From: Elusimicrobiota bacterium
Lineage (GTDB): Bacteria; Elusimicrobiota; Elusimicrobia; UBA1565; UBA9628
Direction of reading: 5' to 3'
Length of the DNA stretch: 64,000 nucleotides
Assembly (NCBI GenBank): GCA_003452935.1
Contig: DMMY01000005.1
Coordinates: 57,858-121,857, forward strand
The notes below the pieces were generated by a model that saw only the letters and a program-made list of their open reading frames with translations, searched no databases and was not told where the DNA came from. Positions within the stretch are counted from its first letter, which is position 1. Each line of letters begins with the position of its first letter. The position numbers and the translations under genes were made by a program. Below are positions 30,980-57,596 of this stretch, one piece after another.

Positions 30980-31008
30980 ATTGTACCAATTGGCCGTCGT
31001 CAGGTCAA
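30980..31008 (-). promoter_or_regulatory. Promoter/operator B: -35 TTGACC, 17 nt, -10 TACAAT, with an overlapping TGTTCgAAgaTTgAACA imperfect inverted repeat (30964-30980) just downstream
   Basis: The minus strand reads ctTTGACCtgacgacggccaattggTACAATgttcaatcttcgaacaaagtccgaccATG. It has the same architecture and about 30 nt of near-identity with the element upstream of pseB (57568..57596). Confidence 0.5.
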
Positions 31009-33429
31009 AGCCGCGTCCGGATTTCGGGGAACGTGCAGCAGGTAGTAAGAGAGACCCAGCAGATAGGCGCCGACAAGCGCCATGCCCGCTCCCCACACTC
31101 CCCAGCGGGGGATGAGCCAGAGTCCCAGTCCGACGTTTCCCAGCCCGGCCAGCAGGTTGCCGACGACCGAGACGCGCAGGCCTGAGAAGTCGCGGGCCAT
31201 GAACAGGGCGGCGCAGATTCCGTGGAGCAGGATAAGGGCCGCGGCCAGGGCAAAAGTCGCGATCCAGGCCCAGTGGAACGGATATTGCCGGCCGAATATG
31301 GACAGGGCCGCCACGGCGCTCAAGGAGAAAAGCAGGAGGGAGGCCGCGGCCAGGGCCGGGCGCAGGCGGCGCAGGCTGCGCCAGGCCTCGTTCTGGCCCT
31401 CGGGGTTGCTGGCCACCGGCACCAGGACAGAGGTGATGATGTAGAGAAACGCGAGGCTGATCTGCGCGGTGGACGTGAAATAGGCGCTGAATATGCCTAC
31501 CTGGTGCGCGTCGAAGAACCGGTTCAGGAAGAGCCGGCCCGGGCCCACGATGCAGGCCGCGGTCAGGAGGTTGAGCGCGGCCATCAAGGTGTAGCTGAAG
31601 ACGATTCGGATGGCGGCCGGATCAAAGATAGGCTTGAGGTAGGTCCTGAGGTTCCAGCCCGAATATACCGCGGCCAGGGCCAGGCTCAGGCACAAGGTCA
31701 GGATGATGGCGTGGTAGGTTCGGGTGCCGTGCAGCACGAAGACCAGGAAGAACAGGGGAGCGGAGAAGCCGTAAACGGCCTCGGACAAGCCGCGCTCCGC
31801 GAAGCGCTGCAGCCCCAGAAGGGGGCTGGAGATGACCACATAGAGGGCCGTGCAGAAGGAGAAAATAATGGAGTCCGTGATGATTTCCGCTGGCACATTG
31901 AGGGAGCCGGCGATGGCGCCTCGCAAAAATGTCAAGGCCGCCAAACAGAGGACGGCCCAAAGCCCGAACATGCTCAGGGTCGTGGAGACGAGTTTTTCCC
32001 GCGCCGGCCGGGAGGGTTCGCTGGAGGGGAACTTGCTCAAGGCCCATTGAAAACCCATCATGGGCAGGATCTGGATGAATGAGGCGATGGCGATGACGAG
32101 GTTGGCCTTCCCGAAATGTTGGGGTCCCAGCACCCGTCCGGCCAGTATCTGGGTCGCCAAGGTGGAGATTTTGGCCATGCCGTAAAGCAGTCCGATCCAG
32201 GTGAATCCCCGCAGAAACGAGCGGGCGTGCTTGCGCTCCCACCAGGGCCCGTCCGCGCACGCGGCGGCCTGACCGGACGCGGCGGGCCGCCGAACCTCTT
32301 GCCAGGCCTTGCGCATCGCCGCCCGGAAGCGGCCGAACTCGGCCGGGTAGGTGTGCTCCAGAGCCAGGCTTCGGCGCTCTTCGCGCAGTCCGGCGGTCTC
32401 GGTGGCGGGCAGGTTACGGGCGATGCGCACCCAGTCCTCGGGAGAGTCCGCCACGTAGACGAGGCGGCGCAGGGGAGCGAAGGCCGGCAGGGGGGTGGCG
32501 AGGATGGGCCGGCCCATGGCCAGGCATTCGTATATCTTGGCCGGGATCACGCCCAGCAGGAACGGGTTGATGCGGTAGGGCAGGATGAAGACGTCGAAAT
32601 TTTCGAGGCGCTGAACCAATTGCTCGCGCGGGACCGGCGGCAGTCGCCGTATGGCGGGGGGCAGGGGCGAAGCCGAGCCCTTGGAGAAGCCGCTTACCGT
32701 CACGCTGAAACCCGCCTCGGCAAGCGCGACGGGAAACCGTGGATCGAGGTCCTGGCCCCAGGTTCCGTAATAGCAGAACCTGAGAAACCTCTGCTCGGCG
32801 GGGCGGGCCGCGAAGAAAGACTCCGGCACCCCTTGATGGATCTGAACCACGTTGCCGTGCTCCGCCCTTTTCTGCTCATAGAGGAAGTCCGAATCGCAGA
32901 TTACGAGATCCGCGCGTCCGAGCAGTTCGGCTTCCTGCCGGGCGAAGTCCTTTGGGGCTCGGGGATGGGCGCGGAAATTGGAAGCGCAGTCGTAAATGAC
33001 CGCGGCGGGCTGCAGCTGGCGCACAAGCTCCAGCGTCGTGGCCGTTGGAAAATACGTTATGACCAGGGGATGGCGGCGCAGGCCCCGGCTGCGCAGGGAG
33101 GCGATGAGCTGCGGGATCAGAATGCCCGCGTTGAAACGCCGGAAGGGAGGGTAGGTCGGCGGCAAGAGCTGGGGCGGCATGACGCGCAGAGCATGCGGCA
33201 GGGACTCCTGGGACGACGGGTCGGGAGCGTCGGCCAATCTGCGCAGTTTGCGCCAGAGGCGCGGAAGGTCTTTGAGTCCCGGGTTTCTAAATCCGGAGTT
33301 TTCCACGAAAAAGACTTCATGCCCGGCTTGGGCCAGCTGCCAGGCGAATATCTGGTGGCGCTGCCAGGCCGCGTCCCAGTCGATGCTGCTCAGGACCACG
33401 ACTTGGGACTTTTCGAACTCTTCCATCAA
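31000..33429 (-). CDS. Bifunctional fusion: N-terminal TuaH-like GT4 glycosyltransferase plus a C-terminal Wzx-type (MOP superfamily) polysaccharide flippase
   Basis: Residues 1-~400 match the TuaH/WcaL-like GT4 pattern: VVVLSSIDWDAAWQRHQIFAWQLAQAGHEVFFVEN...IYECLAMGRPILATP. Residues ~410-809 are a 12-TM polysaccharide-biosynthesis (Wzx) type transporter: MAKISTLATQILAGRVLGPQHFGKANLVIAIASFIQILP... Last gene of the long operon. Confidence 0.7.
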   Translation of the reverse strand: MMEEFEKSQVVVLSSIDWDAAWQRHQIFAWQLAQAGHEVFFVENSGFRNPGLKDLPRLWRKLRRLADAPDPSSQESLPHALRVMPPQLLPPTYPPFRRFNAGILIPQLIASLRSRGLRRHPLVITYFPTATTLELVRQLQPAAVIYDCASNFRAHPRAPKDFARQEAELLGRADLVICDSDFLYEQKRAEHGNVVQIHQGVPESFFAARPAEQRFLRFCYYGTWGQDLDPRFPVALAEAGFSVTVSGFSKGSASPLPPAIRRLPPVPREQLVQRLENFDVFILPYRINPFLLGVIPAKIYECLAMGRPILATPLPAFAPLRRLVYVADSPEDWVRIARNLPATETAGLREERRSLALEHTYPAEFGRFRAAMRKAWQEVRRPAASGQAAACADGPWWERKHARSFLRGFTWIGLLYGMAKISTLATQILAGRVLGPQHFGKANLVIAIASFIQILPMMGFQWALSKFPSSEPSRPAREKLVSTTLSMFGLWAVLCLAALTFLRGAIAGSLNVPAEIITDSIIFSFCTALYVVISSPLLGLQRFAERGLSEAVYGFSAPLFFLVFVLHGTRTYHAIILTLCLSLALAAVYSGWNLRTYLKPIFDPAAIRIVFSYTLMAALNLLTAACIVGPGRLFLNRFFDAHQVGIFSAYFTSTAQISLAFLYIITSVLVPVASNPEGQNEAWRSLRRLRPALAAASLLLFSLSAVAALSIFGRQYPFHWAWIATFALAAALILLHGICAALFMARDFSGLRVSVVGNLLAGLGNVGLGLWLIPRWGVWGAGMALVGAYLLGLSYYLLHVPRNPDAALT

Positions 33430-34352
33430 TCGCCTGCCGGCTGCGCGGCCCGGGCCAGGGCCCAGTCATAGGTGTCGCGCAGGGTGCGCTCCAGGCTCAG
33501 GCGGGGCCGCCAGCCGGTGAGCCGGCGCAGCTTGCGGTAGGAGCAGGCCACGTGCAGGGCTTCGCCGCGGCGGCGCCTTGAGGCTTCGCCGCGCGCCTGG
33601 GCGCGAATCCCGGCGACGGTCATGAGCCGCCGCAGCATGGCTCCGGTTGAAACCGCCGCGCCGGAGGAGACGTTATAGATTTCTCCCGAAACGCCGCGCT
33701 CGGCCAGCATGGCCAGGGCGCGGGCCGCGTCTCGGACGTCGATGAGATCCCGGCTGGAACGGAGATTGCCGACTTTGATGAGCGGGGGCTGCGATCCCCG
33801 CTTGATGCGGGCCAGCTGCCGGGCGAACGTCCCGAGCGCCAGGTTTTCCGGCATGCCGGGACCTACGAGATTGGCGATGCGGGCCACGACTACGTCGAGG
33901 CCCGCGTGGCGGTAGGAAAGGGCGGTCAAGGATTGGCTGAGTTTCATGGCGCCATAAAGCGTCAGTGGCCGAGGGGGAAAATCCTCGGTCAGGAGGCCGC
34001 CGGCAGCGGCGCCGTACTCGGCCGACGAGCCTGCCGTCACGACCCTCACGCGCTCGGGCCGGGGCAGGCTCCTGACGGCTTCCAGAAGGTTCACGGTCGA
34101 GTTGGCAAAGGTTGCCCAAAGTTCGTCCCAGGGCCGGGCCAGCGTCGTTCCCGCCAGGTGAAAGATGACCGCGGGGGATACGCGGCGCACGGCCCGCCCC
34201 GCGGCCGCGGGATCGCGCAGGTCGCAGGTGATGATCCCCGGGCCCGGCACATGGTCGAGGCGGGCCACTCGGGCGCCGGGGCGACGGCGGCGCAGTTCCG
34301 CCGCAAGATGGCCGGCCAAGAAACCCCGGCCCCCGGTGATGAGGAAGGTCAT
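33426..34352 (-). CDS. NAD-dependent epimerase/dehydratase family protein (SDR)
   Basis: The real start is MTFLITGGRGFLAGHL (Rossmann). The 107 upstream codons of the track ORF are Arg/Pro-rich non-coding. Active-site YGAMK (YxxxK) is present. The ATG overlaps the upstream stop (ATGA). Confidence 0.75.
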   Translation of the reverse strand: MTFLITGGRGFLAGHLAAELRRRRPGARVARLDHVPGPGIITCDLRDPAAAGRAVRRVSPAVIFHLAGTTLARPWDELWATFANSTVNLLEAVRSLPRPERVRVVTAGSSAEYGAAAGGLLTEDFPPRPLTLYGAMKLSQSLTALSYRHAGLDVVVARIANLVGPGMPENLALGTFARQLARIKRGSQPPLIKVGNLRSSRDLIDVRDAARALAMLAERGVSGEIYNVSSGAAVSTGAMLRRLMTVAGIRAQARGEASRRRRGEALHVACSYRKLRRLTGWRPRLSLERTLRDTYDWALARAAQPAGD

Positions 34353-35062
34353 CGCCGCAGATACTTGGCGCGGCCTTGGGGCGACGAGAACAGGTCTTGG
34401 GCGGCTTGATAGTCCTCGGGCCGGCCGATGTCCAGCCACTCGGCGCCGTTGCGAAAGCCGATGACGGGCTCTCCGGCTTCGCGCAAGCGGGAGATGAGCT
34501 CTGGGATGCCGATGGCCTCCCCCGGCCGGATGAGGCCCAGGACCTTCCGGTCGAAGACGTTGACGCCCATGCTGACCAGGTAGCGGTAGGCGGGCTTTTC
34601 CACATAGGCCTGGAGCCGGTTCTCGGCGTCGAGGCGGATGGTTCCGAAATCCACGAGAGTCTGGCGCTGGCACACCGCGATCGTGGCCGCGGCCCGGGAG
34701 CGTCGATGGCCGGCGAAGAGCGCGCGAAAATCCAGGGTGGTGAGGATGTCTCCGTTGATGGTGAGAAAATCCTCGCGCAGGCCGCGGATAAGCTTGAGCG
34801 CGCCGGCCGTGGAGAGCGGCTTGTCCTCGCGCACGTAGCGGATGCGCAGCCGCCAGCGGCGGCCGTCGCCGCAGTAGGCCTCGATGAGCTCGGCCAGATG
34901 GCCGGTGGACACGATGACCTCGTTGAAGCCGAAGTGCTTGAGCTGGCGCAGCACGATCTCGATGATGGGATAGTCGCCCACCGGGACCAGGGGCTTGGGC
35001 AGGGAGGTGGTAAAAGGCCTCAACCGCGTGCCCTTGCCGCCCGCCAGGATGACCGCTTGCAT
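34349..35062 (-). CDS. Sugar-phosphate nucleotidyltransferase (NTP_transferase; glucose-1-P cytidylyl/thymidylyltransferase-like)
   Basis: N-terminal MQAVILAGGKGTRLRPFTTSLPKPLVPV signature of nucleotidyl transferases; 237 aa. Confidence 0.85.
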   Translation of the reverse strand: MQAVILAGGKGTRLRPFTTSLPKPLVPVGDYPIIEIVLRQLKHFGFNEVIVSTGHLAELIEAYCGDGRRWRLRIRYVREDKPLSTAGALKLIRGLREDFLTINGDILTTLDFRALFAGHRRSRAAATIAVCQRQTLVDFGTIRLDAENRLQAYVEKPAYRYLVSMGVNVFDRKVLGLIRPGEAIGIPELISRLREAGEPVIGFRNGAEWLDIGRPEDYQAAQDLFSSPQGRAKYLRR

Positions 35063-35063
35063 A

Positions 35064-36056
35064 TCAGACGTTGTAGAGGCCGGCCTTGAAGTCGGCGCGA
35101 TGTCTCGTCATGTAATCGATGGTCCGGGCCAGGCCTTCGTCGAAAGACCAGCTTGGTTTCCAGCCCAGCAAACGCCGTGCCTTGCGGTTGTCGCAGACCA
35201 GGCGCATGACCTCGCTGCGCTCCGGCCGCGTGCGCGCCGCGGACTTGGCGACGCGGGCTTGGCGGCCCATAAGGCGCATGATGGTTTGCGCGGTCTGGGC
35301 GATGCTCACGCCCCGGCCCGAGCCGATGTTGATGACCTCGCCCACGGACTTGGGCGAGGCGGCCACGGCCAAAAATCCCTCGACCGTGTCCGCCACGTAG
35401 TTGAAGTCCCGGATCGTCGAGGTCGAGCCCAGCTCCAGCGTGGGCCGGCCTTCCAGAAGCTGGGAGATGATGGTGGGGATCACGGCGCGGGCCGATTGTC
35501 TCGGCCCGAAGGTGTTGAAGGGCCGGATCACGGCCACGGGCAGGCCGAAGCAGCGGAAATAGCTTTCCGCCAGATGGTCGGCTCCGATCTTGGTCGCGGA
35601 ATAAGGGGATTGGCCCTGCAAGGGATGGGCTTCGTCGATGGGCACGTAGCGCGCCGTGCCGTAGACCTCGGAAGTCGAGGTCACCACGAGCTTGCGGGTC
35701 TTGCGGCCGCGGCAGGCTTCGAGCACGTTCAAGGTGCCGGCGAGGTTGGCCGCGACGTAGCTGGCCGGCGCCGCGTATGAGTAGGGGATGGCGATCAAGG
35801 CGGCCAAGTGGAAGACGATGTCCTGGCCCTCGACGAGCCGGGCCACGCACTGGGGATCCGTGACGTCGCCGGGGAGCACCTCGATGCGGCGCAGGGATTG
35901 GGCGTCGAGCTTTTCCAGGAGGCCCCAATGGCTGCGGGAATTGTAGCGGACCATGGCCCGGACCTTGGCTCCGCGCCGGGAAAGCTCCTCGGCCAGATGG
36001 CTGCCGATGAAGCCGCCGGCTCCGGTCACGAGCACGCGCGCGTCTTTCCAATTCAT
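35064..36056 (-). CDS. NAD-dependent sugar 4,6-dehydratase/epimerase (SDR; CDP/dTDP-glucose 4,6-dehydratase-like)
   Basis: The start MNWKDARVLVTGAGGFIGSHL is internal to the track ORF. TSTSEVYG and YSATKIGADHL (YxxxK) are present. Paired with the adjacent nucleotidyltransferase. Confidence 0.8.
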   Translation of the reverse strand: MNWKDARVLVTGAGGFIGSHLAEELSRRGAKVRAMVRYNSRSHWGLLEKLDAQSLRRIEVLPGDVTDPQCVARLVEGQDIVFHLAALIAIPYSYAAPASYVAANLAGTLNVLEACRGRKTRKLVVTSTSEVYGTARYVPIDEAHPLQGQSPYSATKIGADHLAESYFRCFGLPVAVIRPFNTFGPRQSARAVIPTIISQLLEGRPTLELGSTSTIRDFNYVADTVEGFLAVAASPKSVGEVINIGSGRGVSIAQTAQTIMRLMGRQARVAKSAARTRPERSEVMRLVCDNRKARRLLGWKPSWSFDEGLARTIDYMTRHRADFKAGLYNV

Positions 36057-37576
36057 TTTTTCGGCACCTCCGAGATGGCCGGGGGCAGGTCGAATCCCAT
36101 GTATTTTTCCCGGCACTCATCGCGCAGCTCCTGCCAGGCGCGGTCGCCCTCCGGGGTGAGCTTCTCGGCTTGGGCGATGCGGCTCCATCGCTCCTTGGGC
36201 ATCTTCACGTACAGCACAAAGCAGCGCCGCAGACCCTCGATGGCGTCCCGGGAGAACTGGGGCATGTCCAGGATCGTGGGCTTGGTGATGCAGCTGGCCA
36301 GGCTGTCGGGCTTGATGAAGCCCAGTGCTTCGGCTTGCGCGCGCAAGGGCGTTCCGTGAAACGGGGTGTAGGAGTAGGCGTTGTAGCCGTCGGCCAAAAC
36401 CTGGCGGTTGAGCTCTATGGTGTCGAAAGCGAGCTGCCGGGTCTCATGGGGAAAACCCAGGATGTTGTTGGTGCTGAAGGGAATGCCCAAGCGATTGAGT
36501 ATGGCCAGGCGCTCGACGATCGTGCGGTTGCTCACTCGGCGGGCCAGGTGCTTTTCCCGGAAAGCCTCGTTGCCGTGCTCGATGCCGAAGGACACGCGCA
36601 AAAGCCCGATCTCCTTCAAGCGGCGGAAGCGCTCCTCAATGACGGTCTCGGGCCGGGTCTGTATCCAGAAGGGAAGCTTGAACTCGGAGTACATGTCGCA
36701 GAAAGCCGCGAAATCCCGGTCATTGTAGGCCAGGAAGCTGTCGGCCCAGAAATAGAATGAATCCGCGCCATAGGCTCCGGCCAGATGCCTGAGCTCGGCG
36801 CGGACCTTGTCCGCGCTGCGCATGCGAAAGAAGCGATGCCCTGCCTGGCGATAGGCCTCGGTCTGGGCCGGGGAATTGCAGTAGGCGCAGGTGTAGGGGC
36901 AGCCGCGGATGGTCTCGACCGGAAGCATGCGCCAGAGCTTGCCCTGCATGGGCCGCAGGAACCTGCTTTCCTCGAAAAGACCGTAGTCGGGCAGGGGCAG
37001 GGTCTCCGTGTTGACGGGCCTGGGCAGGGGACTCGAGATTTTCGGGTTCAAGGACCAAAGCCCAGGGGTGCCGGCCGGGTCCTGGCCTTTTTCCAGGCGC
37101 CGGCAAAACTCGGGCAGGGAATCCTCGCCTTCGCCGATGAGGACATGGTCGATCAATCCTTGGGAAAGGCGCAGGGCGAGCTCAGGCGCGAATGTGGCGA
37201 AGACTCCTCCCAAGACCACGCGGGGCCGGTCCTTGGGAAGGGCGCAGAGCAGGCGCAGGGCAATGGGGTACATGTCCTCGGTGGCTGATATGGCGATGAG
37301 GCCGGGCTTCCAGGAGGCGACTTTTTGCGCGAAGTCCTGGGGCGCCGGGCTGTGCCGGTCATGTTGGCGCAAAAGGCTGTCGTCGAAAGGCCGGGCATTG
37401 AGATGCTCGGCCTTGGATTTGTCGCTGTCAAAGCCGTTGTCTAGGTCCGGGTAGTTGGTGGTGTCGAAGAGCGCGACTTCGTGGCCCGCGGATTTGAGGA
37501 TGGAGGTGAACAGTCCCAAGGCCGGGGGCAGCATGTTCATGCCCGCCATGTTTGGGTAGACGAGCAGGATTCTCAT
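36053..37576 (-). CDS. Cobalamin (B12)-binding-domain radical SAM enzyme (class B)
   Basis: N-terminal B12-binding-like Rossmann region (MRILLVYPNMAGMN...GHEVALFDTT). The radical-SAM cluster motif is GCPYTCAYCNS (CxxxCxxC). The track ORF continues to a TTG at 37675 across a 38-bp palindrome; the internal ATG (MRILLV) is preferred. Confidence 0.75.
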   Translation of the reverse strand: MRILLVYPNMAGMNMLPPALGLFTSILKSAGHEVALFDTTNYPDLDNGFDSDKSKAEHLNARPFDDSLLRQHDRHSPAPQDFAQKVASWKPGLIAISATEDMYPIALRLLCALPKDRPRVVLGGVFATFAPELALRLSQGLIDHVLIGEGEDSLPEFCRRLEKGQDPAGTPGLWSLNPKISSPLPRPVNTETLPLPDYGLFEESRFLRPMQGKLWRMLPVETIRGCPYTCAYCNSPAQTEAYRQAGHRFFRMRSADKVRAELRHLAGAYGADSFYFWADSFLAYNDRDFAAFCDMYSEFKLPFWIQTRPETVIEERFRRLKEIGLLRVSFGIEHGNEAFREKHLARRVSNRTIVERLAILNRLGIPFSTNNILGFPHETRQLAFDTIELNRQVLADGYNAYSYTPFHGTPLRAQAEALGFIKPDSLASCITKPTILDMPQFSRDAIEGLRRCFVLYVKMPKERWSRIAQAEKLTPEGDRAWQELRDECREKYMGFDLPPAISEVPKK

Positions 37577-37625
37577 GCTCGGCGCCAAGCCGCATGCTCG
37601 AAGATCAGGATTGCGCAGGGTCGAG

Positions 37626-37663
37626 TTATCCCCAAACATATCCCGGGATATGTTTGGGGATAA
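37626..37663. repeat. 38-bp perfect palindrome (19-bp inverted repeat, no spacer): TTATCCCCAAACATATCCC|GGGATATGTTTGGGGATAA
   Basis: Read directly from the sequence; the right arm is the exact reverse complement of the left arm. It lies just upstream of the preferred start of the rSAM gene, at the edge of a ~400-bp low-GC spacer (37676-38074). Confidence 0.8.
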
Positions 37664-38986: not shown

Positions 38987-38993
38987 TCTATTT

Positions 38994-49976: not shown

Positions 49977-51484
49977 GCGCGCCGCTCCAGGCCCAGGAGC
50001 TTGTGGACTTCGGCGCGCTCTTCAGGGGAAAGCATGAGGAAGTAGTAGGCTGAGAGAGCCAGGCCGTAGGCCGCGGCCATCTCAGCCAAGGTCGCGATCA
50101 GGTTCGCGGGATAAGCGAAACGAAAAGCCAGGCCGCAAAACCCGGCCGCCAACGCGTAGAGCGGCAAATTGGGCCGCACCGAGCGGTTGAAGAACTCGGA
50201 GAACGGAACGGCCAGGCTGCGCAAGGACAGGCGCATGACCAGCGGGAAGCCGACGAGCACCATGGAGGCGCTCAGGCCCACGGCCATGGCCGTGACCCCA
50301 AGGGGACGGATCAGGGATACGCCGATGACCATGTTGGCCGCGGCCACGGCCGCGCTGATGAACATGGGCTCGCGCACGATTCCCTTGGCCGAGAGCATGG
50401 ACCCCGCCAACTCGCTGGTGCCGTTGAATAGCCAGAAGAAGATGATGATGCGCGCGGGCAGAACGCTCTCCTCGAATCCGGGTCCCATCCAGGTCAGGAT
50501 GAAGGGCTTGACGAAGAAGAGCATGATGACCACCACGGGCACGAACATGGCGCTCATGAGCTTGGTCCCGGTGAAGAGCAGGCGGCGCTGGCCCGCGAAG
50601 TCGCCCTGGCCTTCCATCTGGGAGGCGATGGTCCAGGGCGGGCCGCCGAGCGAGCCGTTGATGGTGCGGAATATGCTCTGCACGTTGAAGGCGATGGCGT
50701 AGACCGTGACCGCGGAGAGGGAAAGGAAGTGGCCGATGATCAGATTGTGGACCTGGAAGAGGAAGATGTTGATCAGCGCGCTTATGAATATGTACATGCT
50801 GAAGCTGAAGATGAGCCGGTAGGTGTCCATGTCGAGGCACGGAAAACGGAGCCGGAACCGAGCCCGGCCGCGGGAGACCAGGAAGAGCGCGAGGTTGCCC
50901 AGAATGGTCAGGGATTGCGACAAAAGCAGCAGTTCCACGATGCCGCGGCCGCTCTTGAGCAGCATGACCGCGCCCAGGGCGTTGGCGAGCTGGGCGATGA
51001 TGTTGACGAGGGAATCCGCGCCCCAGAGCTGCAGGCCTTGGGCCACGCCGCGGAAAGTGCTCGAAGGCCACATGAGCACGGCCGTGGCCGCGGCTACGAG
51101 GAAGAGCCGGCGCACGATCTCGCGGTTCTCCGCCCCGACCTGGAAGAAGTCCGTGAACCAATGGCCGCAGGCGAGCATCATCAGGGAGATGGCGATTCCC
51201 ACCAGGACGTAGAAAGAAAACGACGCGCTGATGATTCGGTCGACCCGGTCCTGGTCCCCCTTGCCCGTGTATTCGGCCACGTACTTGGTCAGGGCCGACA
51301 TGATCTTGAAGTCGAGCAGGCCCAGGTAGCCGGTCACGGTCAGGACGATGGTGTAGACTCCGTAGACGTCCTTGCCCACGTGGCGGACGATGAAGGGCAG
51401 GATGGCCAAATTGACCAGGACGGTCACGGCCCGGTTCATGGCCGTCAGGCGCATGTTGGCTCCGATGAGGCGTATCCGGGACAT
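49973..51484 (-). CDS. Wzx-type polysaccharide biosynthesis/export flippase (MOP superfamily, ~12-14 TM)
   Basis: The real start is MSRIRLIGANMRLTAMNRAVTVLVNLAILPFIVRHVGKDVYGVYTIVLT, the characteristic Polysacc_synt N-terminus. The ~227 upstream codons of the track ORF overlap the next gene in another frame and are artefact. Confidence 0.8.
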   Translation of the reverse strand: MSRIRLIGANMRLTAMNRAVTVLVNLAILPFIVRHVGKDVYGVYTIVLTVTGYLGLLDFKIMSALTKYVAEYTGKGDQDRVDRIISASFSFYVLVGIAISLMMLACGHWFTDFFQVGAENREIVRRLFLVAAATAVLMWPSSTFRGVAQGLQLWGADSLVNIIAQLANALGAVMLLKSGRGIVELLLLSQSLTILGNLALFLVSRGRARFRLRFPCLDMDTYRLIFSFSMYIFISALINIFLFQVHNLIIGHFLSLSAVTVYAIAFNVQSIFRTINGSLGGPPWTIASQMEGQGDFAGQRRLLFTGTKLMSAMFVPVVVIMLFFVKPFILTWMGPGFEESVLPARIIIFFWLFNGTSELAGSMLSAKGIVREPMFISAAVAAANMVIGVSLIRPLGVTAMAVGLSASMVLVGFPLVMRLSLRSLAVPFSEFFNRSVRPNLPLYALAAGFCGLAFRFAYPANLIATLAEMAAAYGLALSAYYFLMLSPEERAEVHKLLGLERRA

Positions 51485-51486
51485 GC

Positions 51487-53226
51487 CTAGGCTCCCAACT
51501 CCCGGCGCAAGGTCTCGGTCCAGACCCTTGGCCAGTCCGCCGAGGTGCGGGCGTAGCGCTCGACAAAGGCGGCGCGCGCGGCCCGGGTCTTGGGCTGTTG
51601 CCACCAAGCCTCGGGATCGTCCCATATCCGCAGCGCGTGGCGCGCCGCTGACTCGGGGTCCGGATGCACGACGCCCGCCTCGCGCAGAGCCTCGAAATAG
51701 GGCCGCGCTTCTTCGCGGCTTTCCCAAAGGCTGTCCTGCCAGAAGTGCACGCTGGGCTTGTCCAAGGCCAGTATCTCGGAGAAAGGCGTGCCGGGATAGT
51801 CCGTGACAGCCAGGCGCGTCGTTGAGAGACGTTGGCGCAGCGGAACCGAGGCTTGGTCGCGGCGCAGGTTCGGGAAGCGCCGGCTTAGACGCTGACGCAG
51901 GCCCCAGCCGTAGTCGTGAGGATAGGGCCGCAAGCAGGCCTGGCTGATCCGCGGGCCCAAGCCGGCCAGGAACCGCTCCAGCCACGAGAAATATTCTTCC
52001 CATTGCCAGCCCAGTGGGTGGGGAAAAAGGTGGTGCGCGTTGCGCACGTTCTCGACGGAGAAAATCAGGACGTCCTCGCCGCTGGACCGGGCCGGACTGG
52101 CGCCGGAGGATAATCGCGGGACCGGCAAGTCTTGGGCCCGGTTGTCTTGCGCCGAGGCGGACCAACCCCAGGTGAAAAACCGGTCGCAGACCTCGCGCTC
52201 GTGTCTTTCAGCCAGAGAATATTTCGCCGTTCCATATTGCCCGCCATGCTGAAGTCCCCAGAGCCGCGCGCCCCGTTCCACCCATTCCGCGGCCGCCAGC
52301 TTGAAGGTCTCATTGTAATAGAGCCCGGTGCTGGCCATGACGGCGCGCGGTACGTGGGAACTTTGACCCAAAGATGACTGCCGCGCCGCGGCAAAGCCTT
52401 CCAGCAAGATCGTCGGCAGAGCCCAAGGCAGGGAGCTGACGAGCAGCCGCTCGAACTCGTCTCGGGTCTTAAGTCCGCCCAGGCCCTGGTGGCGGGAGTC
52501 GTCGACAGGCGCCGCGCGCTGGGGGAAGCTGCCGGAAACCAGCAAAGGCAGGGCCTGGCCGCGCATCTTTTGGACCAATCGCCAAAGCAGGCGGCGGCCC
52601 GCGGGGTAGAGGTCGTCGGAAACTATTTTAGGCCTCAAAAGCGAGATCGCGCATCGGCTGGCAAATCCCAAAATGCGGTCGCTGGGATTGCGGGGCGGGA
52701 GCTTAGGCGTCGGAGGGGGCGCGTGCCTGCGAGCCGGGAAGTCCCGGCCCAGGAATCGGAATATGTGGGAGTAGAGCTGGAGATTGCAATGGTCCGTGTG
52801 GTAGAAGCGGTGGAAATCAGCCGCGTCGCGCGGGATGTAGAAGTCCTCAACGGCCAGGACCAAAGATCTTGCGTCCGGGTATTCCTTTAGAGCTTCCACG
52901 ATCTGGGTGTAGCGGTCAAAGAGCTGGTGCGTGTAATAGAGCAGCCAAGGGCCGGCGAGTATGCGCCAGTAGCGCGGGCTTAGCGCAACGCCATGAACCG
53001 CGTTGAGATAGTCGGCGAGCTTGGCCAAAAGTTCAGGCTGAAGATCGCCGCAATAGGCCGCGGCGCGCTCCAGGCGGGCTCTGTCGTCCCAGACATTGCC
53101 CAGCCGGCGGGAGCGGACGTCGGCGAGCCAGTCCGGATCATCGTAGCGGACGCACCAAGGGCCCAAGAGAAGCACCTCGTCTTGGGTGTCCCAGAACTCC
53201 TTGAGCGCCGTGGTGGCCAGGAACAA
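51487..53226 (-). CDS. Hypothetical protein (~580 aa) of a family seen in nonulosonic-acid/O-antigen loci; putative transferase
   Basis: Coding-like from LFLATTALKEFWDTQDEVLLLGPWC onward. A TTG about 10 nt downstream of an AGAAGGAGA Shine-Dalgarno is the likely start. The first ~84 track codons are Arg/Ser-rich and overlap the upstream gene. No catalytic motif is recognised. Confidence 0.4.
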   Translation of the reverse strand: MFLATTALKEFWDTQDEVLLLGPWCVRYDDPDWLADVRSRRLGNVWDDRARLERAAAYCGDLQPELLAKLADYLNAVHGVALSPRYWRILAGPWLLYYTHQLFDRYTQIVEALKEYPDARSLVLAVEDFYIPRDAADFHRFYHTDHCNLQLYSHIFRFLGRDFPARRHAPPPTPKLPPRNPSDRILGFASRCAISLLRPKIVSDDLYPAGRRLLWRLVQKMRGQALPLLVSGSFPQRAAPVDDSRHQGLGGLKTRDEFERLLVSSLPWALPTILLEGFAAARQSSLGQSSHVPRAVMASTGLYYNETFKLAAAEWVERGARLWGLQHGGQYGTAKYSLAERHEREVCDRFFTWGWSASAQDNRAQDLPVPRLSSGASPARSSGEDVLIFSVENVRNAHHLFPHPLGWQWEEYFSWLERFLAGLGPRISQACLRPYPHDYGWGLRQRLSRRFPNLRRDQASVPLRQRLSTTRLAVTDYPGTPFSEILALDKPSVHFWQDSLWESREEARPYFEALREAGVVHPDPESAARHALRIWDDPEAWWQQPKTRAARAAFVERYARTSADWPRVWTETLRRELGA

Positions 53227-53230
53227 AGAG

Positions 53231-53965
53231 CTATTTCTCCTTCTGGGGGACTCCGGCGTTGAGCGCGGAGAGTTCTGGATGCGCGCGCGCGTAAGCCAGG
53301 ACTTCCCGATAGGGCAGTATTTTGCGGTCCAGGCCCAGCTCAAGGTAGATCCGGCGGACCATGGCGAGGTCTTCCGGGGTGTCCACGGTCCAGCGCAAAT
53401 CCGAGTTGTCCTGCGCGTCGACGACGGAACAGGTCTTGAACAGCTCGGGCCTCTCCTTGAGCAGGAAATAGGTGACATGCTCGCGCGCCGGGGCGGAAGA
53501 GGCGAGAGAGTTCATGCGCTCGAGGGCCTCGCGGGTGAAGGCCTCGGCGTCAAGGCCGCGCGGAAACGTCCTGGGCAGGATATTGGAGGCGTAGTCGCAA
53601 GTTCCAGCGCTGTCTTCCAGAGCCTGGATGACGCGGTCGGTTTGCTCCGAGTCGATGAGGGGGCAGTCCGAGGTCACGCGGACCACGATGTCGGCGCAGG
53701 CTTCCCGCGCAGCCAAGGCGTAGCGGCTCAGGACGTCCGTTTCGCTGCCGCGAAAGGCCTGAGCGCCTTCGGCGCGGGCGATATCCGCGACCGGATCGTC
53801 GCTGGAATTGGTGGTGGTGGCCACCACGAGAGCGTCGGCCCGGCGGCAGTCGCGTAATCGGCGCAGCTGCTGGGCCAGCATGGGGCGGCCGGCCAAATCC
53901 ATGAGGACCTTGCCGGGCAGGCGCGTGGACGTCATGCGGGCCTGGACGATGATGACGCGCTTCAT
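53231..53965 (-). CDS. Cytidylyltransferase-family protein (SpsF/PseF-like, CTP_transf_3)
   Basis: N-terminal MKRVIIVQARMTSTRLPGKVLMDLAGRPML is the SpsF/FlmC-type signature; 244 aa. Confidence 0.75.
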   Translation of the reverse strand: MKRVIIVQARMTSTRLPGKVLMDLAGRPMLAQQLRRLRDCRRADALVVATTTNSSDDPVADIARAEGAQAFRGSETDVLSRYALAAREACADIVVRVTSDCPLIDSEQTDRVIQALEDSAGTCDYASNILPRTFPRGLDAEAFTREALERMNSLASSAPAREHVTYFLLKERPELFKTCSVVDAQDNSDLRWTVDTPEDLAMVRRIYLELGLDRKILPYREVLAYARAHPELSALNAGVPQKEK

Positions 53966-54462
53966 GAGGGCCGTTCTGGAGCCAGCTTAAGTTCGAGCCG
54001 GTACGCGACCGTTCCTTTGATTCGAACCAGCTTTTGAAATTGGAAGCCGGCCTTTATGAAAACAACGACAGAGGCGATATTCTCCGGCTTGATATGGGCG
54101 ACAAGGCGGCGCAGGCGTCTTCCTTTGATGAGGGAGGGAATGCGCTTGAGCATGGCGCCTGCAACGCCTTGGCCTCTGCAGGATGGCGCCACCGTGATGC
54201 TGACCTCGGCGACGCCGGCCGCGGCATGATCCAGGCGCAATTGGCCCAGGCTGTCGCCTTCAGGGCCGCAGGCCATGAGGATCAGGCTGCGCGGATCATC
54301 AAGTTTGGCCGCGAACCAGCGTTGATGGACCGGCCAGGAAATCCGCCCCGGGGTCAAGGAGTGGCGGCGGCTCAACGCGTCATTGCGCCAGGCCCAAATC
54401 GAGCGGCTGTCGCTTTCCTCGGCCGGACGCCAGTTGCGAAAAATATTGGGCTTAGCGCACAT
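53962..54462 (-). CDS. GNAT-family N-acetyltransferase (PseH-like candidate)
   Basis: 166 aa with an acetyl-CoA binding motif RGQGVAGAMLKRIPSLIKG (R/Q-x-x-G-x-G/A). Sits between the NeuB-like synthase and the cytidylyltransferase, as in Pse loci. Confidence 0.65.
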   Translation of the reverse strand: MCAKPNIFRNWRPAEESDSRSIWAWRNDALSRRHSLTPGRISWPVHQRWFAAKLDDPRSLILMACGPEGDSLGQLRLDHAAAGVAEVSITVAPSCRGQGVAGAMLKRIPSLIKGRRLRRLVAHIKPENIASVVVFIKAGFQFQKLVRIKGTVAYRLELKLAPERPS

Positions 54463-55501
54463 CGATTTTCTCCAGGAGATGGTGGGCGGGCAGGCTTTGC
54501 CGGGCGCGGCGTCCCAGAAGTTTTGGAAAGAGCCCGCAGTCCAGGCCCGTGTCGCGCCTGCCGCCCCGGCGCAGAACCGCGAGGTTGTCCCGCGTCAAGC
54601 GCGCGCCCTCGGGAATGGGAAGCAGGGTGAATATGCCGCGCCGGTACTCCCGCAGCTCGAGCTCGACGCTATGCGGGACCTTGACTCCGCTGCCCAGCAT
54701 GGACTCGGCTTGCCGGACGGACGCGACCATTCGGCCCAATTCGTCAGGCTCCAGTGCGTAGGAATGGTCCGGACCCCGCAGCCGGCGCGAAAGCGTGAAG
54801 TGCTTTTCCAGGAGATTGGCTCCCAAGGCCGCGGCCGCGACCGGGGCCACGGCGCAGTCCGCGCTGTGATCGGAGAGGCCCACCGGCACTTTGTAGCGGG
54901 CTTTGAGCCAAGGGATGACATTGAGGTTGAGCGATTTCGGCGGAGCCGGGTATTTGGCCGTGCACTGCATGAGGCAAACGCGGCTTCTGGGCAGGCCTTT
55001 CAGGGCGCGGTCGATCTCCCCGGCGTCCGCGGCTCCGGTCGAGAGAATCAGAGGCTTTCCCAGGCGCGCCACGTGGCGCAGCAAAGGGGCATGAGTCATC
55101 TCATAGGAAGCGATCTTGAAGGCCGGGACAAGCGCCCGGAGCCGGTCCGCGCAGTCCTCGTCAAAGGGCGTGGCCATGAACAGGATGCCGCGCCGTTGGC
55201 AGCGCTTGTAAAGCCTGGGCAGCCAGGACCAGGGCATCTCCATATCCTCGATGACGCGGTAGATGCTCTTCTGGACGCCTAGGCTCTTGAGATAGCGGGG
55301 CCGGACCTCGAGTTTTGGGTAGAGGGTTTGGGCGCGAAAGAGTTGGAATTTGACCGCGTCGGCCCCGGCCGAGGCCGCCACGTCGATGAGGCGCAAGGCT
55401 TGGCTGAGGTTGCCGTCGTGATTGGAGCCGGCCTCGGCGATGATGAAGCAGGGGTGGCCGTCGCCTACGCATCGCCCGCCGATGCGCACCGAGCGCGCCA
55501 T
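54452..55501 (-). CDS. pseI: NeuB-family nonulosonic acid synthase (pseudaminic/legionaminic/N-acetylneuraminic acid synthase) with a C-terminal SAF domain
   Basis: The internal start MARSVRIGGRCVGDGHPCFIIAEAGSNHDGNL is the canonical NeuB N-terminus. Also PFDEDCADRL and KIASYEMTH. The ATG at about 55501 overlaps the upstream stop. The symbol is assigned from Pse-pathway neighbours, not from intrinsic specificity. Confidence 0.85.
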   Translation of the reverse strand: MARSVRIGGRCVGDGHPCFIIAEAGSNHDGNLSQALRLIDVAASAGADAVKFQLFRAQTLYPKLEVRPRYLKSLGVQKSIYRVIEDMEMPWSWLPRLYKRCQRRGILFMATPFDEDCADRLRALVPAFKIASYEMTHAPLLRHVARLGKPLILSTGAADAGEIDRALKGLPRSRVCLMQCTAKYPAPPKSLNLNVIPWLKARYKVPVGLSDHSADCAVAPVAAAALGANLLEKHFTLSRRLRGPDHSYALEPDELGRMVASVRQAESMLGSGVKVPHSVELELREYRRGIFTLLPIPEGARLTRDNLAVLRRGGRRDTGLDCGLFPKLLGRRARQSLPAHHLLEKIDVR

Positions 55502-55502
55502 G

Positions 55503-56468
55503 TTATGGCCGCCTCGGCGATTGGCCAAGCACAAGGCGCGCCACGCGCAAAGCTCCATGGCCGTCGATGAGGCCCCGGCCGCTTTCGGACATGCGCGCGC
55601 GCAGGGCAGGGTCCCGGTCGATCCGGCGCAGGGCCGCGCGCAAATGGACGGCCAGTCCCGGGGCCGCGGCTTTTCCGGCCAACAGCACGGTCCCGGCCTC
55701 TGCCATGCCTAGGACGTTGCCCTTCTGGTCCGGGCCCCGCTCCACCACAGCCGCCGGCGTGCCGGTGAAAGCCAGTTCATAAATCGTCTGACCGCCGGCC
55801 GTCACGGCCGCGTCGCAAGACTCAAGCAGAGGGCGCAGGCTCATAAGCCCGCGATGCCAAACCACGGCCGTCGCGGCAACGGAAGCGGGTTTCGGTGCCA
55901 GCATCCCGATGGCAACATGTATTTCGGCCTGGGGTAAGGCTTGTTGCGCGGCTTTGATGACCGTCTCGGTCAGTGCCTCGCAAATGCCGCCTCCCAAGGT
56001 AATGAGCAGCCGTCGTATTCTGGGACTGATGCGGCGGCGAAGGCTCGGGCTCCAATACTCCTGGCGCAAGGGAAGAAATTTGGGCCCCAGGAGCAGGCCT
56101 GCGGCCGGGCCGGCTGAGAAGCGCAACCCGCGCGCGTAGACATGGCCGTTGAGAATCCAGTCCGCCGGGGCGCGGCATGTGCCGAGGTCATCGAAAGCGA
56201 GCAGGTTGCGGCTCTGGCGCCGCAAACGTTGCCAATCCTGGGGCGAGAAGCGATATGAGTCAGCCGCCAGGATGTCCCAGCGACGGCTGCTTAAGGCGGC
56301 CAGGTCAAAGCCTAAAGACCGCACCCAGAAGCGGCAGGAGGCGGGCACGTCCACGAAAACCGGGCGCGCGCCGAGCTCGCGAAAGGCCTGGGCCAGGGCG
56401 GCGCTGCGGCCCAGGTGCCCCAAGCCCACGTTCGGACCGCCGTCAGCGGCTAGGGCAACTGATCTCAT
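55503..56468 (-). CDS. pseG: PseG-like UDP-sugar hydrolase (UDP-2,4-diacetamido-2,4,6-trideoxy-beta-L-altropyranose hydrolase family, GT-B fold)
   Basis: N-terminal MRSVALAADGGPNVGLGHLGRSAALAQAF matches the PseG signature (R-x-D-x-x-x-x-x-G-x-GH-x-x-R). The C-terminal Gly-rich GT-B region is present. Confidence 0.65.
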   Translation of the reverse strand: MRSVALAADGGPNVGLGHLGRSAALAQAFRELGARPVFVDVPASCRFWVRSLGFDLAALSSRRWDILAADSYRFSPQDWQRLRRQSRNLLAFDDLGTCRAPADWILNGHVYARGLRFSAGPAAGLLLGPKFLPLRQEYWSPSLRRRISPRIRRLLITLGGGICEALTETVIKAAQQALPQAEIHVAIGMLAPKPASVAATAVVWHRGLMSLRPLLESCDAAVTAGGQTIYELAFTGTPAAVVERGPDQKGNVLGMAEAGTVLLAGKAAAPGLAVHLRAALRRIDRDPALRARMSESGRGLIDGHGALRVARLVLGQSPRRP

Positions 56469-57535
56469 GCGCGGGCGATTTGGGGCTGGGCTTCCTGAAT
56501 CAGCGGGCTGATCATTTGCCGCAGGTCGTCAGCCGTAAGCCAGGAGTCGTTGGCGTCGCTGGTATAGCGGAAACCCTCCGGCGGAGCCGAGCCGTTGTGC
56601 CGGCGGGCCTCTCCCCACCAGGGAAAGCTCGGCTTGACGAGGTACATGGGGCCCAGGTCCAGGGTCCGGGCCGCTTCTTCCTCGGTGAGCAGGGCCTCAT
56701 GAAGTTTTTCCCCGGGCCGGATGCCGATGACCTTGGTGCTGCATTCCGGGGCCATGGCCTTGATCAGGTCGAGTATGCGCATGCTCGGGATCTTGGGCAC
56801 GAAGACCTCCCCGCCCTGCATGAGCTCCAGGGCCCGCAGGACCAGGCGCACCCCGCCGTCCAGTGTGATCCAGAAGCGGGTCATGCGCTCGTCGGTCACC
56901 GGCAGAACGCCTTGGGAGCGCTGGCGCAGGTAAAGCGGGATGACGCTGCCCCGGCTGCCCACCACGTTGCCGTAGCGCACCACGCTCAGCCGGGTCTGCG
57001 TGGCCGCGGCATAGGAGTTGCCGGCGATGAAGAGCTTCTCGGCGCAGAGCTTGGTCGCGCCGTAGAGGTTGATGGGATTGACCGCCTTGTCCGTGGAAAG
57101 GGCCACGACTTTGGAGACCTTCTCGTCGATGGCGGCGTTGATGATGTTCTCGCTGCCCATGACGTTGGTGAGTACCGCCTCGAAGGGATTGTACTCCAGG
57201 GTAGGCACCTGCTTGAGGGCCGCGGCGTGCACCACGAAGTCCACCCCGTGAAAAGCGCGCCGCAGGCGCGGCAGGTCGCGCACATCGCCGATGAAAAAGC
57301 GCAGGCGGGAGTCCTTGAAGGCCGCGGCCATCTCGGACTGCTTGAGCTCGTCGCGGCTGAAGACTATGAGCTTGCGCGCCTTGGAGAGCTCAAGAGCCGC
57401 GCCTATGAAGCGTTTGCCGAAGGAGCCGGTGCCGCCCGTGACCAGAACGGTGCGGCCGTCCAGTATTTTGAAATCCGCGCGCGTGAGGGAGCGGATAAAG
57501 TCCGGGGAATCGGCGCGGCGGGCGGGTTTCGTCAT
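56465..57535 (-). CDS. pseB: UDP-N-acetylglucosamine 4,6-dehydratase (inverting), PseB/FlaA1/CapD-type
   Basis: FKILDGRTVLVTGGTGSFGKRFI and later YGATKLCAEKL (YxxxK) are both characteristic. First gene of the long operon, with a GAGAGG Shine-Dalgarno 6 nt upstream. Confidence 0.9.
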   Translation of the reverse strand: MTKPARRADSPDFIRSLTRADFKILDGRTVLVTGGTGSFGKRFIGAALELSKARKLIVFSRDELKQSEMAAAFKDSRLRFFIGDVRDLPRLRRAFHGVDFVVHAAALKQVPTLEYNPFEAVLTNVMGSENIINAAIDEKVSKVVALSTDKAVNPINLYGATKLCAEKLFIAGNSYAAATQTRLSVVRYGNVVGSRGSVIPLYLRQRSQGVLPVTDERMTRFWITLDGGVRLVLRALELMQGGEVFVPKIPSMRILDLIKAMAPECSTKVIGIRPGEKLHEALLTEEEAARTLDLGPMYLVKPSFPWWGEARRHNGSAPPEGFRYTSDANDSWLTADDLRQMISPLIQEAQPQIARA

Positions 57536-57567
57536 GTCTAGCCTCTCTTATAAGGAAAGCATGTTCA

Positions 57568-57596
57568 AACTTTGAACATTGTACGAATTAGCCGCT
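57568..57596 (-). promoter_or_regulatory. Promoter/operator A for the pse/radical-SAM operon: -35 TTGACC, 17 nt, -10 TACAAT, overlapped by a perfect 9-bp inverted repeat ATGTTCAAAcTTTGAACAT (57551-57569) at the TSS
   Basis: The minus strand reads ccTTGACCccaaagcggctaattcgTACAATGTTCAAAGTTTGAACATgctttccttataagaGAGAGGctagacATG. It is near-identical in layout to the element upstream of the wHTH regulator gene (30980..31008). Confidence 0.5.

Follow-up and report, generated by a model that had tools for sequence, protein, structure and literature searches.

Nonulosonic acids (NulOs) cap bacterial and archaeal surfaces and affect phage, immune and biofilm interactions, and their known diversity lies in N- and O-substituents added by conventional enzymes. 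The closest described biosynthetic system to the locus reported here is the pseudaminic acid (Pse) pathway PseB/C/H/G/I/F of Campylobacter jejuni and Helicobacter pylori, together with the related legionaminic acid (Leg) pathway. We know of no canonical Pse or Leg locus with radical S-adenosylmethionine (rSAM) genes, unlike the locus analysed here, which carries four. It lies in a stretch of 64,000 nucleotides from an uncultured Elusimicrobiota bacterium (contig DMMY01000005.1; the whole stretch is called the window below) and comprises 23 tightly packed same-strand genes for a sialic-acid-like surface sugar (31000-57535, minus strand, 26.5 kb), numbered g01 to g23 from the pseB end; the count is 24 if an ALGX-like gene (57609-59105) is included. 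The gene block is best explained as built from four modules: g01-g08, g09-g15 with a displaced g19, g16-g18, and g20-g23. We consider it reasonably probable that this is a surface-polysaccharide (O-antigen or exopolysaccharide, EPS) locus of these four modules in which the rSAM enzymes tailor the NulO and co-synthesised sugars. An earlier reading of the letters alone (the sequence-only reading) had proposed that Pse and rSAM genes are interleaved; the genes that it listed are all present at their coordinates on the minus strand, and the modular layout takes the place of the interleaving.

The rSAM proteins also have described relatives. GenK, GenD1, MoeK5 and Fom3 are cobalamin-dependent rSAM methyltransferases acting on sugars or CMP-linked substrates, and Fom3 is a precedent for action on a cytidylylated substrate. 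These enzymes have in common with the B12-type proteins of the window a B12-binding Rossmann domain and a CxxxCxxC barrel; they serve antibiotic pathways, whereas the families of the window are found in surface glycan loci of anaerobes and archaea. For a further methyltransferase of this kind, SD_1168 from Shewanella denitrificans, PMC9204698 cites Allen and Wang 2014. We judged Pfam matches by gathering scores (29.5 for PF04055, 32.1 for PF02310 and 21.5 for PF13186) and NCBIfam matches by curated (equivalog) cut-offs. The three proteins predicted from the letters to carry a B12-binding region and a CxxxCxxC motif (g08, g16 and g19) match both PF02310 and PF04055 above these scores, and the motif is invariant in their family alignments.

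In NCBIfam, none of the four rSAM proteins attains the cut-off of any characterised family, and the B12-rSAM subfamily models missed are those for HpnJ, HpnR, BchE, PhpK, Sden_1168, AprD4, MgmA, C-methylases of ribosomally synthesised and post-translationally modified peptides (RiPPs) and others. It is highly improbable that these genes belong to an unrelated pathway (RiPP, hopanoid, bacteriochlorophyll or lipid) and stand among sugar genes by accident. Families of these four kinds do occur among the weak NCBIfam matches, and distant homologues on a plasmid of Clostridium estertheticum do belong to a genuine RiPP cluster. Against this, the scores are all far below cut-off, the rSAM genes are tied to sugar genes through overlapping start and stop codons, and the synteny with sugar genes, conserved across phyla and domains, already contradicts an accidental placement. 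Membership of the hopanoid, bacteriochlorophyll, ladderane, MCR-methylase and phosphinothricin families was rejected on NCBIfam scores; a place in well-characterised non-sugar families would have counted against the sequence-only reading. A RiPP maturase was also considered and rejected: the neighbouring genes and small open reading frames (ORFs) include no precursor-like ORF, PqqD or RRE protein, protease or peptidase, or ABC exporter, and the RiPP context in C. estertheticum is quite different.

Candidates for the same six roles as in the Pse pathway are found in the window, partly in the same order (PseB, PseG-like, NeuB-family synthase, GNAT, cytidylyltransferase). The first, g01 (56465..57535), encodes PseB, the UDP-GlcNAc inverting 4,6-dehydratase (PF02719; TIGR03589, 485 bits versus 407.75), and is the only one of the six to attain its curated family cut-off; the other five roles fall below theirs, the models for PseH, PseG, PseI, PseF and PseC being missed. 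It is followed by a PseG-like UDP-sugar hydrolase (g02, 55503..56468; TIGR03590, 102.7 bits, below 153.55), a NeuB-family NulO synthase (g03, 54452..55501; PF03102, 265 bits; NeuB equivalog 303.7 versus 399.65 and PseI 267.2 versus 340.25), a GNAT N-acetyltransferase in a PseH-like role (g04, 53962..54462; PF13302; TIGR03585, 26.5 bits, below 93.1) and a CTP_transf_3 cytidylyltransferase that partners the Pse set (g05, 53231..53965; PF02348, 90 bits; PseF 26 versus 205.7). In an archaeal Pse cluster (L004), a 27% homologue of g02 occupies the PseG position and a 43% homologue of g05 is the sole cytidylyltransferase. The remaining role has one candidate nearby, the DegT-family sugar aminotransferase g17 (38994..40130; PseC model TIGR03588, 334.5 versus 423.5; ArnB, 336 bits), which is 14 kb away in a block with g16 and a family 2 glycosyltransferase (GT2) that elsewhere travels as a unit; a second DegT protein (14386-15585) scores 240.7 bits with the PseC model. 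The full Pse set announced by the sequence-only reading is thus borne out to the extent that every role has a candidate, and weakened by the single cut-off passed and the distant PseC candidate. A complete Pse pathway can only be read from gene content.

Two further genes of this module, g06 and g07, encode a putative NulO transferase and a flippase. The transferase (g06, 51487..53226) is a full-length member of the LIC12162 family (TIGR04331, PF27859; 433.2 bits versus 225, spanning 1-585 of the 585-position model), and g07 (49973..51484) is a Wzx/MOP flippase (PF01943, PF13440 and PF01554). The setting differs from that of the described Pse pathway in being a Wzx/Wzy-type polysaccharide locus instead of a flagellin glycosylation island, with an LIC12162 transferase instead of Maf. 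Because the flanks encode Wzy_C, GT4, Bac_transf, a second DegT and three PMT_2 (GT-C) proteins, we assign the locus to the O-antigen/EPS type. Module 1 would make a Pse-type 5,7-diamino NulO from UDP-GlcNAc through PseB, an aminotransferase, the GNAT, the PseG-like hydrolase and the NeuB-family synthase; g05 would activate it with CMP, g06 would transfer it and g07 would flip the lipid-linked unit.

The module ends with g08 (48468..49976), a B12-binding-domain rSAM protein of a NulO-associated family (PF02310, 49.7 bits; PF04055, 57.5 bits). A scan of 185,579 species genomes, annotated by tblastn with the window proteins, gave 26 distinct g08 loci, all from metagenome-assembled genomes. The relatives are full-length and about 50% identical (45-53%), and they occur in some ten lineages of Bacteria (Omnitrophota, Planctomycetota, Syntrophorhabdus, Solibacteraceae of the Acidobacteria, Nitrospinales) and Archaea (Altiarchaeota, Methanomicrobiales/Methanoregula, Hydrothermarchaeota, Micrarchaeia). 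A NeuB and/or LIC12162 homologue is encoded in the examined flank of 22 of the 26 loci. Wzx (38-52% identity to g07) is immediately downstream of the g08 orthologue in 12 loci, and LIC12162 (6 loci) or NeuB (2 loci) is immediately upstream. In the Methanoregulaceae locus L004, the row consists of PseB, an amidotransferase set, DegT, CTP_transf_3, PseG-GNAT, NeuB and the g08 orthologue, with nothing else nearby, so that the last is the sole gene beyond a Pse-type set. In the Omnitrophota locus L010 the orthologue stands among Leg-type genes. From these contexts, g08 accompanies 5,7-diamino NulO pathways of both the Pse and the Leg type in both domains, and it would act in the window as a class-B-type rSAM enzyme that tailors the NulO or its precursor.

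Module 2 opens with g09 (47385..48404), an rSAM protein with a twitch-like four-Cys auxiliary cluster domain (PF04055, 80.9 bits; PF13186, 47.8 bits). The sequence-only reading called it a SPASM protein; the PF13186 match and the C-terminal Cys residues are there, but g09 and four homologues from other loci have exactly four invariant C-terminal Cys (C252, C270, C318 and C321), so that the seven-Cys SPASM motif for two auxiliary [4Fe-4S] clusters is absent. The four Cys fall on Cys positions of the C-terminal domain of BtrN (HMMER alignment), the butirosin 2-deoxy-scyllo-inosamine dehydrogenase. In BtrN this domain is a single-cluster twitch domain. With only four conserved C-terminal Cys that align with BtrN, we call g09 twitch-like rather than a full SPASM protein. 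Its rSAM core is nearest DesII (E 7e-9). Similarity to BtrN is low, and BtrN chains have 269-270 aa versus 339 aa in g09, which is about 70-90 residues longer; g09 differs from both enzymes in belonging to a conserved family of its own that adjoins a CMP-transferase. Since BtrN and DesII act on amino sugars or cyclitols, the relationship suggests a role as a radical dehydrogenase or epimerase rather than in peptide cross-linking.

The rest of the module comprises a second CTP_transf_3 protein, NeuA/PseF-like (g10, 46627..47388; PF02348; PseF 65.8 versus 205.7; nearest solved structures NeuA), a classical short-chain dehydrogenase/reductase (SDR; g11, 45883..46626; PF13561 and PF00106; best NCBIfam match glucose 1-dehydrogenase, 188 bits), a D-2-hydroxyacid dehydrogenase (2HADH; g12, 44951..45883; PF02826 and PF00389; PGDH-like, 229 bits, below cut-off), an extended-SDR NAD-dependent epimerase/reductase (g13, 44058..44954; PF01370; nearest solved structures nucleotide-sugar 4-epimerases), a HAD-IA phosphatase (g14, 43411..44061; PF00702 and PF13419) and a 601-aa putative transferase (g15, 41609..43414; no Pfam match; TIGR04326, 42.5 bits, below 250). 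The g10 homologue in an Elusimicrobia locus (L038) is 80% identical; across metagenome cassettes the identity is mostly 59-70%, with a range of 48-70%. Profile-profile comparison of the g15 and LIC12162 families (hhalign; probability 88.8%, E 2.5e-6, C-terminal 178 columns) indicates that g15 is a remote LIC12162 relative. The relation is visible at that level only, BLASTP between g06 and g15 being not significant (E 0.59), and neither profile gave a significant match among PDB sequences, where the best were C-terminal regions of GT-B proteins (E 0.2-0.5). A g15-like gene directly follows CTP_transf_3 in several loci; from this and the LIC12162 relationship of g15, we recognise two CMP-transferase/transferase pairs in the window, g05-g06 and g10-g15.

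The B12-binding-domain rSAM protein g19 (36053..37576; PF02310, 45.1 bits; PF04055, 72.5 bits) is encoded apart from these genes in the window, and its orthologues (57-70% identity) are embedded among g09-g15 homologues. Among the g19-family loci, 21 span 8 kb or more at an identity of 57% or higher; these contain homologues of g13 (14 loci), g09 (14), g14 (13), g12 (11), g10 (10), g11 (9) and g15 (8). The common cassette order is CMP-transferase, twitch rSAM, SDR, g19-type rSAM, 2HADH, epimerase, HAD and g15-like. In L038 the order g09-g14 is exactly kept, with the g19 orthologue where the window has g08, and the cassette directly follows NeuB and NeuC. Based on the L038 order and the co-occurrence counts, we read g19 as the usual B12-rSAM of a conserved cassette, displaced in the window. 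Module 2 would yield a second CMP-activated acidic sugar: g09 would oxidise or epimerise an unactivated secondary carbon, the SDR, 2-hydroxyacid dehydrogenase, epimerase and HAD protein would tune redox state, stereochemistry and phosphorylation, g10 would add CMP and g15 would transfer the product.

Other versions of such a cassette were also detected. In L001, L003, L009 and L036, the SDR, 2HADH and epimerase genes are replaced, beside B12-rSAM and g15-like genes, by an HMGL-like protein (~560 aa), an LdpA-like 4Fe-4S protein, HAD, an HpcH_HpaI aldolase and CTP_transf_3, an arrangement that resembles a route through a pyruvate aldolase to a different ulosonic acid activated with CMP. In L038 (4392-6735), a pair of Fe-ADH and aminotransferase genes directly precedes CTP_transf_3, NeuB and NeuC. 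This pair resembles KdnB/KdnA, which aminates Kdo to Kdo8N in Shewanella, and by this analogy hints at an extra amino group on the NulO of the L038 organism. The most rSAM-dense example that we saw is a 21-kb glycan locus on a Gallionella-like contig (L037, 21.5 kb). Five of its rSAM genes are of the B12-binding kind and one is of SPASM type, and they are accompanied by LIC12162, CTP_transf_3, 2HADH, SDR, HAD and DegT-GT2 genes.

Module 3 consists of g16, g17 and g18. The start of g16 is probably at 41621 (492 aa, JGI gene call) and not at 41690, which gives a B12-binding-domain rSAM gene at 40143..41621 (PF02310, 77.1 bits; PF04055, 73.1 bits). Its best family match is the Sden_1168 P-methyltransferase family NF038361 (310.7 bits, E 2e-92, versus a cut-off of 575); NF038361 is the closest characterised family, and g16 falls outside it. 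Relatives of g16 are 60-66% identical and are followed by DegT and/or a GT2 of ~311 aa in 5 of 5 contexts, with a g15-like ~600-aa protein ahead of the g16 relative in 3 of the 5 and NulO genes nearby. In the window the GT2 is g18 (38075..38986; best NCBIfam match TuaG, 96.8 bits; Pfam GT2 on the JGI gene call). In this module, a B12-rSAM protein related to P-/C-methyltransferases would act with the DegT aminotransferase and the GT2.

These contexts bear on which sugar is modified. Enzymes that act on other parts of the glycan only (an NDP-4-amino-6-deoxyhexose, N-acyl side chains or the lipid-linked repeat unit), with the NulO left as ordinary Pse5Ac7Ac, are an unlikely explanation. It would fit the company of g16, which travels with DegT-GT2 and NDP-hexose genes and not with NeuB, the presence of NeuB in only 5 of 46 g19-family flanks, the resemblance of g13 to nucleotide-sugar 4-epimerases and the distant B12-rSAM homologues in non-NulO glycan clusters on Azospirillum and S. 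magneticus plasmids. It fits poorly with the position of g08 directly after NeuB in archaeal loci whose surroundings show no other sugar pathway, with NeuB or LIC12162 in 22 of 26 g08 loci, and with a g19/g09 cassette centred on a NeuA/PseF-like CMP-transferase (mostly 59-80% identity). Synteny between rSAM and sugar genes is conserved in dozens of unrelated genomes and therefore does not reflect chance; the rSAM-NulO link is kept across phyla and in both prokaryotic domains. The functional link between the rSAM and sugar genes is well supported, as is the lack of any known rSAM family among the four. The earlier description of the locus as unusual in composition holds as regards the absence of a characterised rSAM family and fails as regards uniqueness, the combination being widespread in environmental genomes.

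Under the four-module explanation, the most likely chemistry would be cobalamin-dependent C-methylation together with radical oxidation or epimerisation of the NulO or a co-synthesised sugar. The analysis establishes gene content, domain architecture, fold, the conserved Cys ligands, the synteny and the two CMP-transferase/transferase pairs; we infer the substrates, the methylation chemistry and the use of cobalamin throughout. The B12-domain enzymes would cleave SAM reductively to a 5'-deoxyadenosyl radical, which would take H from an unactivated sugar carbon, and methylcobalamin would then supply the methyl group. Methylation is most likely for g16, the nearest characterised family being one of methyltransferases; with g08 and g19 it is the default for this fold. 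The AlphaFold model of g08 (pLDDT 88.9) matches every solved cobalamin rSAM enzyme (MgmA, TsrM, OxsB, CysS and TokK) as well as AprD4 with a Foldseek probability of 1.0 and similar scores, which confirms the class-B fold and leaves cobalamin binding and reaction type undecided by fold. The fold search did not tell methylases and AprD4 apart for g08.

AprD4, the apramycin rSAM 1,2-diol dehydratase that acts on an amino-sugar substrate, is the best match by sequence among solved structures for g08 and g16, and its TM-score with the g08 model is 0.65-0.71. The two share 18% identity, and scores with the AprD4 model of NCBIfam are 54-107 bits versus 500. AprD4 is not known to use cobalamin. The B12-domain proteins may be no methyltransferases at all and instead be radical enzymes of the AprD4, HpnJ or OxsB type, either independent of cobalamin or rearranging their substrates, and performing 1,2-diol dehydration, deoxygenation or ring contraction; we regard this as rather unlikely, but as the main alternative. 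Module 2 would then make a 2-keto-3-deoxy (ulosonic) acid without an aldolase: the SDR would oxidise sugar C1 and so give an aldonic acid, the 2-keto-3-deoxy function would come from the 2-hydroxyacid dehydrogenase or from a radical dehydratase, and g10 would add CMP. In favour of such a route are the top rank of AprD4 and its tie with methylases in fold, the presence of HpnJ, BchE and ApyD among the best NCBIfam matches of g08 and g19, the glucose 1-dehydrogenase match of g11, and the absence of NeuB, KdsA and aldolase genes from module 2, in contrast to sister cassettes in which an HpcH_HpaI aldolase replaces SDR/2HADH genes. However, the likeness to AprD4 and HpnJ is distant (16-18% identity by structure, scores far under family cut-offs), g16 is clearly nearest a demonstrated methyltransferase family, and all three proteins keep the B12-binding Pfam domain above its gathering score. 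We also know of no precedent for an aldolase-free route to an ulosonic acid.

Several observations weigh against the tailoring of NulO and co-synthesised sugars by methylating enzymes as set out above. The four rSAM families are without any characterised substrate or product. A PF02310 domain and the fold are insufficient as proof of cobalamin use, AprD4 scoring as well as the cobalamin enzymes. Families nearest g08 and g19 include rearranging and dehydrating enzymes, their best NCBIfam scores are with non-methylating or uncharacterised families (ApyD, HpnJ, BchE and MJ_1487), and the nearest relatives with a solved structure or a characterised function include several sugar enzymes that do not methylate (AprD4, HpnJ). 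Module 2 encodes neither NeuB nor KdsA nor an aldolase, so that a source for its acid substrate is missing. With PseB alone at its equivalog cut-off, Pse stereochemistry, as against Leg or another, is unproven. Finally, co-transcription across the 498-bp gap between g18 and g19 is at best predicted.

A chemical observation may connect to this locus. Kleikamp et al. 2020 (PMC8157484) and a 2026 preprint (bioRxiv 10.64898/2026.04.20.719630) describe ulosonic acids activated with CMP, detected by mass spectrometry in Magnetospirillum gryphiswaldense and at trace level in Methanococcus. The marker fragment of their backbone lies at 311.10 instead of 297.09, 14 Da heavier, which the authors interpret as an elongated C10 chain; neither paper gives a biosynthetic route or mentions rSAM enzymes. 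From the three CMP-sugar ions that were reported we computed the formulas C15H25N3O8, C16H27N3O8 and C17H29N3O8, which rise by CH2 at each step. These sugars are Pse/Leg-like and diamino, and a CH2 series is what C-methylation of the backbone by a NulO-linked class-B rSAM enzyme would be expected to give; they are a chemistry to which no gene is assigned, and the link to rSAM is ours. Our tentative proposal, which we hold to be possible though on balance doubtful, is that NulO-linked class-B rSAM enzymes, g08 foremost, C-methylate the Pse/Leg backbone (for example C9 methyl to ethyl, possibly repeated) to yield the C10+ CMP-ulosonic acids of Magnetospirillum and Methanococcus, and that g09-g15 with g19 form a second radical route to a CMP-acidic sugar, shared by anaerobic bacteria and archaea. 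Full-text searches of the literature library used here returned no paper linking rSAM enzymes to NulO, Pse or Leg pathways, the few co-mentions with pseudaminic acid, legionaminic acid or NeuB being incidental. A paper on Campylobacter fetus describes phase-variable MoaA/PqqE-type rSAM genes beside SDR, methyltransferase and formyltransferase genes and gives no function.

An analogue in a cultured organism was found on plasmid pDCAR1 of Solidesulfovibrio carbinolicus DSM 3852 (L119, 66-92 kb). As in the window, four rSAM genes stand beside NulO genes. Three of the four are of B12 type and one is of SPASM type, and their neighbours are a NeuB-family synthase, pseF and a second acylneuraminate cytidylyltransferase, with FabG. 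The plasmid proteins are only 24-34% identical to those of the window, the gene order is different, and PfkB kinase, transketolase and sialate O-acetylesterase genes are additional. This uncharacterised locus is a distant, tractable analogue.

As regards transcription, 20 of the 22 gene junctions in the block overlap or are at most 12 bp long, the exceptions being 63 bp (g08-g09) and 498 bp (g18-g19). A sigma-70-like promoter-like site, TTGACC-17-TACAAT (10 of 12 matches), lies directly upstream of pseB (57606-57578, minus strand). The same pair occurs at 31008-30980, just after the last gene, g23; this second copy is upstream of a MarR-like gene (30393-30989) and the KpsF arabinose-5-phosphate isomerase gene (29401-30396; TIGR00393, 289 bits versus a cut-off of 204). 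The only long non-coding gap of the block (498 bp, 37577..38074, minus strand) has a GC content of 0.51 versus 0.63 for the window, and it contains two elements upstream of the g19 start: at about 150 bp an extended -10-like element, TGGTATAAT (37730-37722, minus strand), and at 54 bp a perfect 30-bp palindrome, CCCCAAACATATCCCGGGATATGTTTGGGG (37630-37659). Together, the palindrome and TGGTATAAT could be an operator or a hairpin of the 5' untranslated region plus an internal promoter. Based on the low GC of the gap and these two elements, g19-g23 may form a separate transcription unit with its own promoter. A co-directional operon of about 24 genes had been proposed; the 23 packed genes on one strand agree with it, and the 498-bp gap makes a single uninterrupted operon doubtful. 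Per-gene GC is roughly uniform (0.61-0.71) and therefore gives no sign of recent mosaic acquisition. At Rfam gathering thresholds we found no cobalamin riboswitch or other known RNA in the window, and no tRNA genes were found in it. Over all shared genes the window is 100% identical to contig Ga0103681_1000010 (156 kb) of JGI metagenome 3300009296.

Module 4 would serve NDP-6-deoxyhexose synthesis and export. It encodes a LegB-like NDP-sugar 4,6-dehydratase (g20, 35064..36056; TIGR04180, 455.3 bits, just under 475), a sugar-1-phosphate nucleotidylyltransferase (g21, 34349..35062; NCBIfam nucleotidyltransferase families, all below cut-off), an NAD-dependent epimerase/reductase (g22, 33426..34352; NCBIfam profile search) and a fusion of GT1-like and Polysacc_synt flippase-like parts (g23, 31000..33429; PF01943, 59 bits; PF13692 weak; 10 hydrophobic segments). 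Here, as elsewhere in the block where ORFs overlapped, the coding frame was chosen by GC content at third codon positions (GC3), which decided the frame of g20. The trio g20-g21-g22 is kept in L007 and L032.

Beyond the block, the window carries two-component system, MarR and KpsF genes, which together with Wzy_C and Bac_transf point to a bacterium. The three PMT_2 (GT-C, ArnT-like) proteins are encoded at 16991-19366, 24316-26502 and 26499-28067, and in one of the three a GT4 domain is fused to the PMT_2 part. In L007 and L009, the g16-DegT-GT2 unit is likewise followed by PMT_2 genes. This points to polyprenyl-phosphate carriers as donors of some of the sugars outside the cytoplasm. The ALGX-like gene (57609-59105, minus strand, GC 0.58), just upstream of the pseB promoter-like site, encodes a 498-aa protein with a weak AlgX-type SGNH match; such a gene is also present in the Syntrophorhabdaceae locus L009, and the protein may be an O-acetyltransferase for the glycan. 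Beside the polysaccharide genes, an ORF of 1861 aa (7479-13064, minus strand) with a strong coding signal (GC3 0.88) has no Pfam match and ends in an outer-membrane-protein-like C-terminus (...TLTFQF); it is probably a beta-barrel. On the plus strand, 60084-63890 encodes a 1268-aa NHL/fn3/TIG repeat protein with a weak match to Por_Secre_tail, a sorting domain of type IX secretion, which may be a clue to the phylum.

Since these modules are found again in hundreds of environmental contigs, the locus is no one-off; it belongs to a class of NulO loci that is widespread and uncharacterised. Our analysis defines three large B12-rSAM families, one twitch-rSAM family and one LIC12162-like transferase family, none with an assigned function, and pDCAR1 in a cultured sulfate reducer offers an experimental entry point. 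If the proposed function is correct, these genes would perform carbon-level tailoring of sialic-acid-like sugars, a chemistry undescribed for this sugar class, across both domains. They would also be candidate genes for the higher-carbon CMP-ulosonic acids, and an analytical observation would become a testable gene-function hypothesis.

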